A stretch of DNA of 21,542 nucleotides from a virus (lineage: Duplodnaviria; Heunggongvirae; Uroviricota; Caudoviricetes). The stretch lies in IMG/VR virus record IMGVR_UViG_2563366943_000015; one strand, written 5' to 3'. The notes beneath the pieces were generated by a model. That model ran no database searches. It saw only the letters and a program-made list of their open reading frames with translations, and was not told where the DNA came from. Position 1 is the stretch's first letter, and every line of letters starts with the position of its first letter. This document shows, piece by piece, positions 1 to 21,132 of the stretch. Made by a program: the position numbers and the translations under genes.

Positions 1-315
1 ATGCATAACGATCAACATAATTATGATTTATGCCTGCAAGCCATAAATGAGCGGGTAAAATCAGAGTGCCTCTTACTCCTCCCACAAGAACACGATGCAG
101 TAAAATCCATTCAGGCTGAGCCGTATGGACATCTCACACCTGTGACTCTCGGCATTATCGCCAGAGCATTAACACAGCCCATGCTTATGCGTATTAAGAC
201 CAATATAAATAACTGGTTGAATGAAGAATTAAGCTACCTTGATTGTGAGTGGGACAATCATTACGCAAAAACACAAAAAGAACGCATCTTCAGTCGATTA
301 TCCAGCAACAGATAA
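1..315 (+). CDS. Hypothetical protein, 104 aa, convergent with the lysis-region genes
   Basis: ORF begins with ATG at window position 1 and ends in a stop at 313..315; no family recognised; opposite strand to every neighbouring late gene. Upstream RBS cannot be seen. Confidence 0.4.
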   Translation: MHNDQHNYDLCLQAINERVKSECLLLLPQEHDAVKSIQAEPYGHLTPVTLGIIARALTQPMLMRIKTNINNWLNEELSYLDCEWDNHYAKTQKERIFSRLSSNR

Positions 316-324
316 CGAGCCACC

Positions 325-1131
325 TTATATACGCCCTTTCAGATAAGTCATCCCCGGCTGCATCCAGTCAACAGGTGCTTTCTTAAAGGGCGTATTATCA
401 AAATCACGCAGAAGAGCCTCCAGCACAACTGCATCATTGTCAGCACCACTGGCCATCATTTCAATCTCAGCTGCTACCTGCAGATATCCCATGCAACGAC
501 CAATGCGCTTCATCAGCCCCTGCTTTTTATTGTTCTTCAGGTAATCAATGGCAAATTCAATGAGCGCCTCACTATGCTGGTGCGATGGCGGTGTTAATTT
601 CCCATTTTCTGAGATGGTTATTTTCCCGCCATCTCCGTATACAACAAAGGATGGCCGGTTACACTCCCATTCCTGATCTTTATCAGGTGCAGACGCAATA
701 AAATAACGTTTATTTCCTTCCTCTCCGGCACTTTTAACCGTAATGGAGTACTCAGACTGCAGACAAGACGCCTCTTTTTCTGACCGCAGTGTTGACGGCG
801 GCATCTTCAGAGAACCAGTAATTCTTCCCGGTAGCTTTCCTTTGTAGGTTATCAACACATTCTGCGCCTCTAAAATTACGGGGCGCTTTTCCGGCAACGG
901 ACCATCCCCTTCACATAACCCGGCAGCAACATCCATGAAAAACTGCTTCGCCTGCTTTTTCGCCTCAGCTTCGTAAAACTCCAGCGTGGCACCTTCAGTA
1001 CGGTCAAGACTAATCGCCACATTTGGCAACAACAGTGACGGATACCCACCAATTTCCAGTACCACAGTAACAGTAATCTTATCCGGGTAATTATTTATCC
1101 CTTTAACAACCAGTTCGTATTTTTTCTTCAT
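325..1131 (-). CDS. Hypothetical protein, 268 aa, in the position normally held by the endolysin
   Basis: ATG at 1131..1129 preceded on the minus strand by GGGGAGAG about 7 nt upstream, lying in the 3' end of the holin gene (4-bp gap to the holin stop). No hydrophobic N-terminal SAR segment and no lysozyme or amidase motif that I recognise. Confidence 0.6.
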   Translation of the reverse strand: MKKKYELVVKGINNYPDKITVTVVLEIGGYPSLLLPNVAISLDRTEGATLEFYEAEAKKQAKQFFMDVAAGLCEGDGPLPEKRPVILEAQNVLITYKGKLPGRITGSLKMPPSTLRSEKEASCLQSEYSITVKSAGEEGNKRYFIASAPDKDQEWECNRPSFVVYGDGGKITISENGKLTPPSHQHSEALIEFAIDYLKNNKKQGLMKRIGRCMGYLQVAAEIEMMASGADNDAVVLEALLRDFDNTPFKKAPVDWMQPGMTYLKGRI

Positions 1132-1135
1132 CGCT

Positions 1136-1351
1136 TTACTCTCCCCGCGCCGCCTTACGCCGGTCCTCTCTGATTTTGAAATACAGGTTAGTCAGGTACG
1201 TCAGCAGCCCAAACAGCAGACTCCCCAGCACGCCTATTGCCGCCCACTGAGACGGGGAAACCCTGTCCAGCAACTGCAGGAACCAGTAGCCCGTTCCCAC
1301 CGCTGACGTGGTGTATGACACACCTGTTGTGATTTTTTCCATCTGGTACAT
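1136..1351 (-). CDS. Class II pinholin, phage 21 S21-like, 71 aa
   Basis: Translation [71 protein letters not shown] closely matches the S21 pinholin as I remember it (two TM segments, dual Met start M1/M4, basic C-terminus). Confidence 0.8.
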
Positions 1352-1426
1352 ACCCCGTCTCCCGCAATCCGGAAGCTCACAACAACAAGTGGGGCATCAG
1401 CTCACACCGACACCCCCTGCGCATGG

Positions 1427-2050: not shown

Positions 2051-4021
2051 TCATGCCGCGATGTCCGCGTTGTTCACTTCCACCTTCACACTGTCAATCA
2101 GCAGCGTATATGTCGCCGCCTTTGATATGCCTGTCAGTTGCAGTTTGTCCGCCGCCCCTGATGCCGGAGATTTCACCAGTGTGAACGGCGTCCCCCGTTT
2201 CTCATCCAGTACCGGCGTCACCTGAATGCTGTTGTTTCCGGCAAACTCAAAAGCCAGTGTGTGCCATCCGTTATCAAAGACCCCGAACGTATCCAGCTTC
2301 GCATTCGGCTTCTTGTGGTGCATCGCGTTCAGGTTCGTCGCATCCGTCTGCAGGAAGAAGGACATCAGCATGTCGTTGCCTTCCTCTGCCAGCGTCACTC
2401 CCTCCGGCAGGGACGACAACTGCCAGTAAATGCCCAGGGCAAACTGATTCGGCACCAGTGAACCCGGCAACTTAAACCGTACGCTCACACGTCCCCCCTT
2501 CTTCAGTAACTCCACTCCCTGTCCGGCTGCATCATGCTCCAGAAACCAGATGTGGTTTTCCGGTTTATTCAGTTGCAGGGCCTTACCTCCCGTAGCCCCC
2601 GCATCACTGACCACCGCTTCAGCAATGTTTTTGTTAACATTGTCTCCGCTCGCCGGTTTGTGATAATAGCGCCAGCCCTGTGATGCCAGGTCTTCGCCGG
2701 ACGCCAGCAGACTCATCAGGGTTCGGTTACTGACCGGGGCTTCCGGCTCTCTCTCCGTACCTTCACCGGAAGGTCCGGTGGGCTTCACCGTATCAGGCTG
2801 TTTTCCGGTAATGAATTCAGCGTTTCTCCCGGCATGCACAAGAATCGCCGTTGCCAGACGGTCGGAAATAATCCCACGACGTGCCCATGATCCAAAATGC
2901 GTTTTACGGTCGGCCGTCGTCCAGGTTTTGGCGTCCGTTCGACCACCGGCTCCGTAATACCCAATATCCGCAACATCCGGATCTTCTGACGGCTCGTTGG
3001 TACCCACATTTCGCCCGTTTTCATCCGTCATAAACGGCACAAAGAAGATTTTTTTTGCGGATTTCGTCTTGTATGCACCATACACCGCATCGTATTGCGA
3101 AGAATAAGTCTGCTTCCAGTAGTAGGTCGTGTCGCCACAAATCCAGGGAACCGATGACGGAGAGCCCCCGAGACACTGACCTCCGAATTCCGACAGGTCA
3201 GAACGATATTTTTCCACCATGGAATCAAACAGCCCCGGCTGAGTGGCGTATGCACCCTGTTTCAAATCAAACTCGCCCTGCATCCAGACCACTGCAAGCA
3301 GAATATTTTTAGGGTTGGCCTTCAGTGCGGCCTGAGTACGGGCAAGCAGGTCCTTGTACAGTGGCTTATCTACACCCCAGCGTGCCGAGGTCTCGCTTGC
3401 GCCGGTGGATTCGCTGAAGGTACCTTCATCGCCCGCCAAAAATGCAGAACCACCACGGCAGCAAGGAACCAGAAGAATACCGGCATTCGCCGGAATAAAC
3501 GGCAACAATTTCTTCGCGATATGTAATCCCTGCCCCACGCATCCATACTGAGCTGCGCTGGCTTTCGGGTGTGAAAACTTACTCAAATCCTGAACATCAT
3601 GCAGGCAGTGGTCCGCAGGAATAATGTCATTGTAGTTACAGGACGCACCACCCGGCGTGACAGTGCTGCGACGCGCCAGCTGTTTAATACGCGGGTCCGG
3701 ACGGTCATATGTCTCCGGCAGCGGAAGCCCTTCACCATACGCCATACCGTTTGACTGCCCGGCCAGGGCAACAACAAAGTAATACTCCGGGTTGCTGGTG
3801 GTGCTGATAACTGCGCCTTCTCCATCCGACGGCTTCACCACCACAGGTGTGGTGACATTACCTTCTGCGACAATCGCCTGAATAAGTGCTGCGCCATCAT
3901 CCGTATACGAAGAAAACGGCCCGCCGTATGGTTGCCATCCTTCACGAATTTTTTGAGCAAGCGCATCCGCAAGGTCTGACGGCGATGCCGCCCTGACCAC
4001 GTCATAGTGTTTAAATGCCAT
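2051..4021 (-). CDS. Prophage NanS-p-like 9-O-acetyl sialic acid esterase (DUF1737 N-terminus plus DUF303/SGNH-type esterase), 656 aa
   Basis: GQSN block (FVVALAGQSNGMAYGE) typical of the sialate O-acetylesterase family; size and position downstream of Q as in Stx-phage nanS-p; RBS GGGAGG 4 nt before the ATG at 4021. Confidence 0.75.
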   Translation of the reverse strand: MAFKHYDVVRAASPSDLADALAQKIREGWQPYGGPFSSYTDDGAALIQAIVAEGNVTTPVVVKPSDGEGAVISTTSNPEYYFVVALAGQSNGMAYGEGLPLPETYDRPDPRIKQLARRSTVTPGGASCNYNDIIPADHCLHDVQDLSKFSHPKASAAQYGCVGQGLHIAKKLLPFIPANAGILLVPCCRGGSAFLAGDEGTFSESTGASETSARWGVDKPLYKDLLARTQAALKANPKNILLAVVWMQGEFDLKQGAYATQPGLFDSMVEKYRSDLSEFGGQCLGGSPSSVPWICGDTTYYWKQTYSSQYDAVYGAYKTKSAKKIFFVPFMTDENGRNVGTNEPSEDPDVADIGYYGAGGRTDAKTWTTADRKTHFGSWARRGIISDRLATAILVHAGRNAEFITGKQPDTVKPTGPSGEGTEREPEAPVSNRTLMSLLASGEDLASQGWRYYHKPASGDNVNKNIAEAVVSDAGATGGKALQLNKPENHIWFLEHDAAGQGVELLKKGGRVSVRFKLPGSLVPNQFALGIYWQLSSLPEGVTLAEEGNDMLMSFFLQTDATNLNAMHHKKPNAKLDTFGVFDNGWHTLAFEFAGNNSIQVTPVLDEKRGTPFTLVKSPASGAADKLQLTGISKAATYTLLIDSVKVEVNNADIAA

Positions 4022-4228: not shown

Positions 4229-4582
4229 GCCCACAAGAAAGCCCCTCCGGAGAGGGGCTAAAGCCGCGTATCTGTATCATCATGCACATGGTGCCGGGTG
4301 CCTCCCGGTAAGTTCAGCCCGGTGCCACTAAACCCGCGTCATTCTCGTTTTGATAATCAGAGATTATACCGTCACCAGTCGCCCCTCCGCTCAGGGGGAT
4401 TCACCATGCCAGTTTCTTTTAACAAACTCCCCGCAAACCAGACAACAGTCAACCGCCTGAATTGTGAGGTATTTAAAAATTTCTCCAGATAACTGATACC
4501 CGGCTAACAGTCTGGCGTTTTCTTTTTCAGCAACGGGAAAGCAACAACCACCACACCCACCAGCCGCCAATTTACCACAAAT

Positions 4583-7011: not shown

Positions 7012-7167
7012 TTACTCCTCAGGTTCGTAAGCTGTGAAGACAGCGACCTCCGTTTGGCCGGTTCGGATTCGTACCTCGCAGAGGTCTTTCCTCGTTACCA
7101 GTGCCGTCACTATGACGGTTAAACAGATGACGATCAGGGCGATTAGCATCGCCTTTTGCTGCTTCAT
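7012..7167 (-). CDS. hok: Hok-family type I toxin (HokD/RelF-like), 51 aa
   Basis: MKQQKAMLIALIVICLTVIVTALVTRKDLCEVRIRTGQTEVAVFTAYEPEE matches Hok/Gef family from memory; RBS AAGGAG 9 nt upstream; an in-frame upstream ATG at 7224 gives a 19-codon mok-like extension. Confidence 0.85.
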   Translation of the reverse strand: MKQQKAMLIALIVICLTVIVTALVTRKDLCEVRIRTGQTEVAVFTAYEPEE

Positions 7168-7727
7168 AGCCTGCTTCTCCTTGCCTTTCGGCACGTAAGA
7201 GGCTAACCTACGTGTGTAGAGCATAGATATGGCCTCAGATTAATGTTAAGCGTCTTGCCGGACGCGTAATGTTAACTGGGGCTTTTCTCTATCTGCCTTT
7301 TGGTGTTCATGCCTGAGACAGATAGCCTCAAGCACCCGCAGTTATTCTACTTAACTAAGATTTCCCCGCAAACCGTTTTTGTCCGGCACAGTAAATATCC
7401 AACTAAACCAATGGCGTTCGCTGTATTTACCGCCAGTATTCAATGCACATGACCGCCATGAACACCCCTAAAAAAAGGGCATTTATATGTCCAAACATTA
7501 ATATCAAAACATCAATTTTTTCCATATACCTTGCTGTGAAGATGATGGGCATACATGATGCGAACAACCAGAACGCAACAAACAAAAACTGCAATGCGTT
7601 TTTCATTATTCCCCCCTACAATCAATGTGCAATAACATTTAAACACACCTCAATTTGGCCGGACATATAAATATCTAAACCAGAAAAAATCACTTACATA
7701 GCGTTACAAACTCTTTAGTCTAAATAT

Positions 7728-14401: not shown

Positions 14402-14627
14402 TGCTATGTGTAGTCTTTGGCGGCATCAGTTCTACTCCGTGGCTGCCCTGCCGCCCCTTTTTAAAGTGAATTTTGTGATGCAGTGAATGCGGCTAAGCGC
14501 ACGCGGCACAGTTAAAAGCATCAGTGTTATGGGTGGATTATCCGGCGTTAATTGTTAACTGGTTAACGTCACCTGGAGGCACCAGGCACCGCATCGACAA
14601 AATTCATTTGTAAAAATGGAGATAATT

Positions 14628-18990: not shown

Positions 18991-19197
18991 ATGACAAAAA
19001 TTATGAGATATGACGATGTTAAACCATGTCCGTTTTGTGGTTGTCCATCTGTTACGGTGAAAGCAATTTCAGGATATTACCGGGCAAAATGCAACGGATG
19101 CGAATCCCGAACTGGCTATGGTGGAAGTGAAAAAGAAGCACTCGAAAGATGGAATAAACGAACTACTGGAAATAATAATGGAGGTGTTCATGTATAA
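18991..19197 (+). CDS. ralR: Restriction-alleviation protein RalR/Lar, 68 aa
   Basis: MTKIMRYDDVKPCPFCGCPSVTVKAISGYYRAKCNGCESRTGYGGSEKEALERWNKR matches Rac RalR from memory. Confidence 0.75.
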   Translation: MTKIMRYDDVKPCPFCGCPSVTVKAISGYYRAKCNGCESRTGYGGSEKEALERWNKRTTGNNNGGVHV

Positions 19198-19378
19198 AAT
19201 TACTGCCACTATTGAAAAGGAAGGTGGCACTCCTACTAACTGGACAAGATATTCAAAATCTAAATTAACGAAATCAGAATGCGAAAAAATGCTCTCAGAA
19301 AAAAAAGAAGCAGGCGTTTCCAGAGAGCAGAAAGTAAAGCTGATAAATTTTAATTGCGAGAAACTTCTGTCCTCGTGA
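19190..19378 (+). CDS. ydaC: YdaC-like small protein, 62 aa
   Basis: MYKITATIEKEGG...; RBS GGAGG upstream; overlaps the ralR 3' end. Confidence 0.55.
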   Translation: MYKITATIEKEGGTPTNWTRYSKSKLTKSECEKMLSEKKEAGVSREQKVKLINFNCEKLLSS

Positions 19379-20808: not shown

Positions 20809-20939
20809 TTTTAACGTAAATGGATTGTTAAATGTATTTTGGTTGTGATATAACCAAAAAAGACCGGAATACAGAAATTCGAGTAAATTTCGGGGAATTT
20901 CGGGAAGACGTTTGCAACTGATTGATTTTAAATACAATT

Positions 20940-21042
20940 AAAAAAAGACCGAATACGATTCCTGTATTCGGTCCAGGGAAATGGCTCTTGGGAGAGAGCC
21001 GTGCGCTAAAAGTTGGCATTAATGCAGGCTTAGTTGCCTTGC
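20940..21042 (-). ncRNA. sdsR: sRNA SdsR (RyeB)
   Basis: Minus strand reads GCAAGGCAACTAAGCCTGCATTAATGCCAAC...CCCTGGACCGAATACAGGAATCGTATTCGGTCTTTTTTT, matching the SdsR sequence as I remember it, including the terminator hairpin plus T7. Confidence 0.7.
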
Positions 21043-21132
21043 CCTTTAAGAATAGATGACGACGCCAGGTTTTCCAGTTTGCGTGCAAAATGGTCAATAA
21101 AAAGCGCGGTGGTCATCAGCTTAAATGTTAAA

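Follow-up and report, generated by a model that had tools for sequence, protein, structure and literature searches.

A long-form YdfR-family gene and a convergent 104-codon partner between the holin and endolysin genes of a lambdoid Escherichia coli prophage

We analysed a 21,542-nt stretch of DNA from a virus of the Caudoviricetes (IMG/VR record IMGVR_UViG_2563366943_000015); this whole stretch, numbered from its first letter, is called the window below. Its left end holds the beginning of a phage-21-type lysis cassette, in which the holin gene (S) and the lysozyme gene (R) are separated by a 268-codon gene on the late strand and by a 104-codon gene, p104, that meets it head-on. The most fitting description of the pair is a long-form version of ydfR, the lysis-cassette accessory gene, together with a linked, moron-like partner, and the features concerned are as follows.

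1..315, plus strand: p104, an open reading frame (ORF) for a soluble five-helix protein of 104 aa (AlphaFold2 model, predicted local distance difference test score, pLDDT, 88)
316..324, no strand: 9-nt spacer between the two convergent stop codons
325..1131, minus strand: long-form YdfR-family gene, ORF for a cytoplasmic protein of 268 aa (full-length match to phrog_1085, 6e-158)
832..1131, minus strand: N-terminal DUF1327/YdfR domain (N-domain), aa 1-100 (Pfam PF07041, 9e-44)
655..831, minus strand: variable middle region, aa 101-159 (alignment A1 and blastn mapping)
328..654, minus strand: conserved C-terminal domain (C-domain), aa 160-268 (alignment A3, including Salmonella homologues)
1146..1141, minus strand: Shine-Dalgarno sequence GGGGAG of the 268-aa gene, inside the last holin codons, read from the sequence
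1136..1351, minus strand: P21-type class II holin of the pinholin family, 71 aa, dual start MYQM (Pfam PF04971)

Anatomy of the cassette and of its two extra genes

The holin matches PF04971 over profile positions 1-63 of 64 (E 9e-33, 112.5 bits against a cutoff of 26) as well as PHROG holin families. Its Kyte-Doolittle hydropathy in a 17-residue window is 0.3 at aa 7-29 and 1.99 at aa 37-53, corresponding to a weak first and a strong second transmembrane domain, and Met1 and Met4 are both present as dual starts. All of this bears out the first-pass annotation, made from the letters alone, which had called the gene a phage 21-type pinholin. In phage 21 itself the S start motif is M-K-S-M, and its extra lysine is thought to turn the longer product into an antiholin; the dual start in the window (1343-1351) reads M-Y-Q-M, with zero basic residues between the two Met codons, and the longer product of this holin may not act as an antiholin. 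The holin stop codon (TAA, 1138..1136) is followed after a 4-nt gap by the ATG of the 268-aa gene at 1131, whose ribosome-binding site lies, as had been noticed, within the 3' end of the holin gene, and we infer that the 268-aa gene is translationally coupled to the holin.

The same annotation had proposed that an unrecognised two-gene cargo occupies the place of the endolysin, given that no endolysin-sized ORF occurs in 1..1135. Positions 1..1400 of the window are 100% identical to the chromosome of E. coli AF3 (NZ_OZ547117, locus L001), and inspection of the left flank there recovered the missing cassette genes: R, encoding a 177-aa protein with a Phage_lysozyme domain (PF00959, 1.9e-24) and an Ala/Gly-rich N-terminus that resembles a signal-anchor-release (SAR) segment (hydropathy 1.8), begins 128 bp to the left of window position 1 and is followed by two small ORFs and then by Rz (PF03245) with Rz1 (PF06085) embedded in it. 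The statement about 1..1135 is therefore true as it stands and reflects the window edge: the endolysin seemed absent because R begins past it. The endolysin is intact just beyond the window, nothing replaces it, and the cassette order is S - 268 aa - (104 aa, reversed) - R - Rz/Rz1, with the promoter-proximal end lying in the window. In phage 21, S and R are adjacent. The window cassette shares with S21-R21-Rz/Rz1 (pinholin plus SAR endolysin) the holin family, the SAR-like lysozyme, Rz/Rz1 and the gene order, but its S and R are set apart, with a holin-to-R distance of 1.27 kb in L001 and two extra genes between them; the insert has 41-47% GC, as against 52-56% across S, R and Rz (holin 56%, R 52%). 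We hold this anatomical account as a whole with high confidence.

The first 100 residues of the 268-aa protein match PF07041 at 9e-44 (148 bits, cutoff 25) and are 45% identical to YdfR of E. coli K-12 over aa 1-74 (33/74 residues), such that the description of the pair as unrecognised fails for the N-domain, a family known in Pfam, and holds for the C-domain and p104, both of which are absent from Pfam. YdfR of the K-12 Qin prophage, also a DUF1327 protein, has a homologous N-domain and occupies the same slot, in the order essQ-ydfR-rrrQ (class II holin, then lysozyme), but it is a single-domain protein of 103 aa, whereas the window protein has 268 aa, a second conserved domain and a convergent partner. 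The window protein thus falls outside the single-domain size of ~100-115 aa that is typical of YdfR/DUF1327 proteins, and we class it as a long-form variant because of its additional conserved C-domain. Its N-terminus reads MKKKYELVVKG, its maximal Kyte-Doolittle hydropathy over 19 residues is 1.3, a hydropathy scan detected neither a hydrophobic or transmembrane segment nor a signal peptide, and Pfam and NCBIfam returned no lysozyme, amidase or peptidase domain, all in line with what had been read from the letters. With neither a signal-anchor-release segment nor a catalytic domain match, the protein does not fit the description of a SAR endolysin, and these searches assign it to no known endolysin class, there being no match to a cell-wall hydrolase domain.

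The ORF belongs to a cluster of 584 member sequences (P0001), and its homologues fall into length classes in alignment A1: forms of 296-333 aa carry the same N- and C-parts joined by a coiled-coil middle, 213-aa forms carry the C-part without DUF1327, ~115-aa forms consist of the N-part only, and some family members (305-aa forms) have alternative C-termini. Relative to the 296-333-aa proteins, the 268-aa form lacks a coiled-coil segment of ~28-65 aa (window 750-800, aa 111-127). The junction falls between two SEKE/SEKD-like motifs. The arrangement suggests an in-frame, repeat-mediated deletion as the origin of the junction. The 3' part of the ORF, encoding the C-domain, has a dN/dS of 0.21-0.39, by which measure this domain is under purifying selection, and 16 columns of A3 are invariant (H186, I195, L198, G211, R212, L217, Q218, A220, A221, P248, K250, W256, P259, G260, Y263 and L264).

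When the C-terminal 126 residues were searched exhaustively with HMMER, only 17 representative clusters among 1.84 billion were returned. All named distant relatives of the C-domain (35-45% identity) come from Salmonella enterica, the others being from Logan assemblies, and five distant proteins (P0140, P0141, P0142, P0144 and P0148) are built alike, from an N-domain, a variable middle and a C-domain; a profile search of genome contigs with A3 yielded only 3 Escherichia/Shigella loci. No relative of the C-domain was found in Pfam, NCBIfam or the PDB, weak-hit Pfam scans of all A3 members gave nothing consistent, and PDB sequence and profile searches returned coiled-coil noise only. An AlphaFold2 model of the 268-aa protein, from one run on a shallow alignment of Escherichia/Shigella sequences, was poor (mean pLDDT 53.6), with the N-domain as a beta3-alpha fold at pLDDT 65-84 and the middle region below 50. 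An internal duplication or common origin of N-domain, C-domain and p104 was also considered and rejected, all pairwise hhalign probabilities being below 1%.

The 104-aa gene at 1..315 does run head-on into the 268-aa gene, as first described, with the two stops 9 nt apart; this spacer leaves no room for a terminator, and the tight convergent spacing is found in all relatives. A Shine-Dalgarno sequence (GAGGA) lies ~7 nt 5' of the p104 ATG, dN/dS is 0.27-0.52, and the length of 104 codons is kept exactly through 25-40% amino-acid divergence; by these measures p104 is a real gene under purifying selection. Its AlphaFold2 model (one run) is a confident five-helix bundle with a pLDDT of 88 and a predicted template modelling score (pTM) of 0.81, and hydropathy shows no hydrophobic segment. 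No family, PDB or viral-structure relative of p104 was found in Pfam, NCBIfam or the PDB, weak-hit Pfam scans of all members of alignment A4 gave nothing consistent, and Foldseek against BFVD gave nothing at E <0.5.

Mapped against a locus with a 296-aa long form (L005), in which R comes directly next with no p104, the gene lies within a 447-bp insertion (window 325 to about -121) that comprises p104 and 122 bp upstream of it and takes the place of 31 bp that in L005 separate the stop codon of long ydfR from the ribosome-binding site of R. The block has 41-43% GC and p104 itself 41% (R 52%, holin 56%). No Rfam family matches in the S-R interval, and the p104 leader shows no folding advantage over shuffled sequence (z -1.6). 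At 50-75 nt ahead of the p104 start (L001 5929-5950, window about -71 to -50) stands an inverted repeat, CGCCAGYG-N5-7-CACTGGCG, with a T-run after it. This hairpin is kept between E. coli and Salmonella with differing flanks (alignment A5; no Rfam match), and might serve in leader attenuation, as an operator or in mRNA processing.

RefSeq annotation by the Prokaryotic Genome Annotation Pipeline (PGAP) labels only the first 112 codons of the 268-aa gene, as a pseudogene ('YdfR family protein, incomplete, missing C-terminus'), both in E. coli AF3 and in O104:H4 strain 2011C-3493. We judge this label to be probably an annotation artefact, due to the commoner short forms, because the frame is intact and conserved. 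Taken at face value, it would favour a decaying remnant, made up of a 268-aa YdfR pseudogene and a 104-aa frame that is open by chance, as might the missing coiled-coil segment. We consider such decay very improbable: both frames are intact with conserved lengths, dN/dS is 0.2-0.5 for both genes, full-length Salmonella homologues (30-45% identity) have the same architecture and the same partner, and the model of p104 is confident.

A variable interval and a linked gene pair

To compare the S-R interval across relatives, we collected 80 IMG/VR loci with a 97-100% identical holin, in 71 of which both S and R are visible. Their intervals are occupied as follows.

10/71 loci: S directly adjoining R
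36/71 loci: DUF1327 N-domain gene only
9/71 loci: long form with N- and C-domains
10/71 loci: C-domain gene without DUF1327
4/71 loci: with p104
2/71 loci: other

One more p104 locus among the 80 lies on a truncated contig. Behind a near-identical holin the S-R interval is hypervariable, and the two-gene insert is therefore optional and dispensable for a working phage-21-type cassette; far from being fixed in all relatives, the pair is a variable insert. The accessory character proposed in the first-pass annotation is supported by this survey, with the correction that the module is not one cargo, a ydfR-family gene being the usual occupant of the slot and p104 a separate 447-bp insertion. Among 5426 complete E. 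coli genomes, C-domain DNA was found in 787 and the p104 gene in 95.

The short, 115-aa YdfR encoded between S and R of phage H-19B (L004 2998-3345) is derived from the long form by an 857-bp deletion. This deletion extends from codon 112 of the long gene (breakpoint at window position 795) into the region upstream of p104, with 4-nt microhomology, and takes out the C-domain, p104 and half of the conserved hairpin, the other half being kept; this H-19B-type short ydfR is common to many Shiga toxin (Stx) phages of the Stx1a/Stx1 and Stx2c types. The complete pair is present as orf5 and orf6 of Stx2 phage 86 (AB255436; 97.8% and 100% protein identity), in the order S-orf5-orf6-R, and has been annotated there as hypothetical since deposition. 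The window prophage differs from phage 86 in having no stx genes and a Rac-like early region, the structure of the pair being identical.

In every intact copy examined, p104 adjoins a C-domain gene. It is convergent with that gene in 46/46 IMG/VR loci, with 10-18 nt between the blast matches, and is adjacent to it in 19/20 metagenome loci, the exception being a p104 copy cut by an insertion sequence. At that locus (L169, 1-1316) p104 breaks off at residue 92 because of an inserted element with orf1/orf2-like genes, which we take to be of the IS66 type. In one class of loci the C-domain and p104 are both 100% identical, yet identity in the N-domain joined to that C-domain varies between 61 and 99%; recombination therefore splits the N-domain from the C-domain, and not the C-domain from p104. 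Moreover, C-domain and p104 identities fall in parallel, from 100%/100% through ~80%/70% to ~41%/45%.

The pair is also present in Salmonella (L096/L097 and L100/L101), where the next gene after a distant homologue of long YdfR is again convergent, encodes 105 aa and is 45-46% identical to p104 (6e-36 and 2e-34); other Salmonella long-YdfR homologues have no p104. The Salmonella pair sits upstream of the holin, which is once S21-type and once HP1-type, and its association with two different holin families implies that the pair moved as a unit. By these alignments, the C-domain and p104 are shown to travel as one block across Escherichia and Salmonella. This cross-genus conservation of the convergent pair seems to be unreported: literature searches on DUF1327, on ydfR with holin, and on the phage 86 protein accessions and O104:H4 locus tags brought up nothing discussing the pair. 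At L096 (1157-2469) the Salmonella pair lies just downstream of a pertussis-toxin-S1-like gene with a small partner (faint Pfam hits), and at L100 (2127-2781) just downstream of a HicA/HicB pair.

Such linkage raises the possibility of a toxin-antitoxin or toxin-immunity pair, one of the candidates of the first-pass annotation, with a toxic C-domain and p104 as its prophage-expressed antidote. The tight linkage of a small protein to the C-domain of a larger modular one, and their joint divergence, are features shared with type II toxin-antitoxin and polymorphic toxin-immunity pairs; no intact copy of p104 was found without an adjoining C-domain gene, the H-19B-type deletion takes out both at once, and the conserved N-domain with its variable or alternative C-termini (305-aa forms) loosely recalls polymorphic toxins. 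However, in such systems the antidote, not the toxin, occurs alone, whereas here the putative toxin is far commoner than the antidote (787 versus 95 of the 5426 genomes), the 296-aa form is directly followed by R, and C-domains ~82% identical to that of the window occur both with p104 (L130) and without it (L013). Judged from this distribution, p104 is dependent on the C-domain and the C-domain not on p104, the opposite of the toxin-antidote prediction. In addition, the genes are convergent at every intact locus examined and do not form one co-directional operon, and neither PADLOC, Pfam nor structural searches matched a toxin or immunity fold. An obligate pair of this kind is accordingly disfavoured, and we rate the toxin-antidote explanation as quite improbable.

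The pair can equally be set beside the morons of lambdoid late operons. The bor and lom genes of lambda are oriented against the late operon. Like them, p104 runs counter to the late transcript, and it forms a separate insertion with a higher AT content than the flanking genes, which in relatives adjoin each other; but no promoter or downstream terminator of its own was identified, and the conserved hairpin with its T-run sits upstream, not downstream, of the gene. In a further departure from known morons, p104 is tied to one neighbouring domain in every intact copy examined and moves with it. The likeness to bor and lom would suit a role in lysogenic conversion or anti-phage activity, in which p104, alone or with long YdfR, excludes superinfecting phages or aborts infection. 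Its place in a hypervariable, AT-rich hotspot and its narrow, patchy distribution would fit the same role, as would the other accessory genes held by the neighbouring late-region slot (a NanS-p-like esterase; in Salmonella, pertussis-toxin-like genes and HicAB). On the other hand, a free-standing defence gene is not expected to be welded to one partner domain in every copy, no p104 promoter was detected, neither protein has a match among PADLOC-DB 2.0 models at E up to 1, and there is no enzymatic or sensor domain. We consider an anti-phage function unlikely.

Possible roles of long YdfR and p104

The 268-aa gene stands on the late strand directly behind the holin, with p104 antisense to the late transcript. 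One candidate role is in lysis timing, with long YdfR modulating pinholin triggering or release of the SAR endolysin from the cytoplasmic side. The gene lies enclosed by S and R and has its Shine-Dalgarno sequence inside the holin gene, most sampled phage-21-type cassettes hold some DUF1327 gene there (36 + 9 + 4 of 71), and a ydfR mutant is reported, as cited in PMC13232886, to affect envelope integrity, although that phenotype could be a polar effect on rrrQ. Yet cassettes with a near-identical holin work without a DUF1327 gene, with S adjoining R in 10/71, the Salmonella homologue lies upstream of the holin and occurs also with a different holin family (PF16080), and long YdfR has no membrane segment or signal peptide. 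This proposal, too, we regard as having a low probability.

The interpretation that we favour starts from K-12 YdfR, residues 1-72 of which bind the N-terminal, catalytic half of RNase E in a BACTH two-hybrid assay and in pull-down experiments, and with which RNA co-purifies (PMC13232886). The N-domain of the window protein, at 45% identity to YdfR, covers this RNase E-binding stretch. Long YdfR would be made late, alongside the lysis proteins, and would stay cytoplasmic, where its N-domain would probably dock on the catalytic half of RNase E, on RNA, or on both, acting on RNA turnover late in infection and not on the cell wall. The C-domain would supply a second contact, as an effector or docking domain. 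In turn, p104 would be made before the onset of late transcription and then silenced by convergent late transcription, and would regulate or antagonise the C-domain.

Several observations weigh against this reading. RNase E binding is known only for a 45%-identical homologue, K-12 YdfR, and overexpression of YdfR altered few transcripts (PMC13232886). A promoter scan found no sigma-70 consensus promoter on the plus strand upstream of p104, and neither fold nor profile searches pointed to a function for the C-domain or for p104. Most C-domains have no p104 beside them (787 versus 95 of 5426 genomes), so that p104 cannot be needed for the C-domain to function or to be tolerated, and mere physical linkage could explain the shared history of the two. 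The mechanism itself is something we infer, and a late RNase E- and RNA-binding accessory factor with p104 as its regulator or antagonist is a possible but rather doubtful proposal; the best explanation as a whole, anatomy and mechanism taken together, is a tentative one that we would put slightly short of an even chance. No rival has positive support from database or fold searches.

A more specific version of the RNase E reading would make the C-domain and p104 a two-part switch in lambdoid late operons. In this scheme p104, made only while the late genes are silent, would bind long YdfR by its C-domain, whether that protein leaks from the prophage itself or comes from a superinfecting relative, and so gate its RNase E-directed activity for the fate of late mRNA. 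We think such a switch improbable; if it does exist, it would represent a late-gene checkpoint, or a mechanism of exclusion, of a new type, conserved from Stx phages of E. coli to Salmonella prophages.

The pair belongs to the late region of Stx-type and related prophages, among them Stx2 phage 86 and one from the O104:H4 outbreak lineage, and the transcript of that region controls toxin release and lysis. If long YdfR does target RNase E, it would give the phage a handle on host RNA decay at lysis, with p104 as regulator; as long as no phenotype is tied to it, the pair counts as one more conserved accessory gene pair. For annotation, the RefSeq pseudogene-fragment label on the intact 268-aa gene would count as a mis-annotation, and the widespread short YdfR of the H-19B type is derived by deletion from the longer form.

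The surrounding prophage

The remainder of the window makes up the early, regulatory half of this lambdoid prophage, which adjoins yebY and has a Rac-like early region (recET, kilR and ydaT); the window contains no stx genes and no tRNA genes. One further feature shares the late strand and precedes the esterase-holin block.

4229..4438, minus strand: match to Rfam STnc100 (cmscan, 147.6 bits against a gathering score of 47), presumably the leader of the late transcript

Between this element and the holin, a 656-aa DUF6645/SASA-type esterase is encoded at 2051-4021, in the slot held by NanS-p in Stx phages. It is separated from the holin by DUF826 and DUF1378 genes (1427-1916), which overlap by ~60 nt in RefSeq, the DUF826 start differing between records. 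Elsewhere, gathering-level Rfam matches comprise sok next to hokD (7162-7337), DicF (14405-14456), RalA next to ralR (19196-19374), and the overlapping SraC/RyeA and SdsR/RyeB (20936-21080) near the prophage end.

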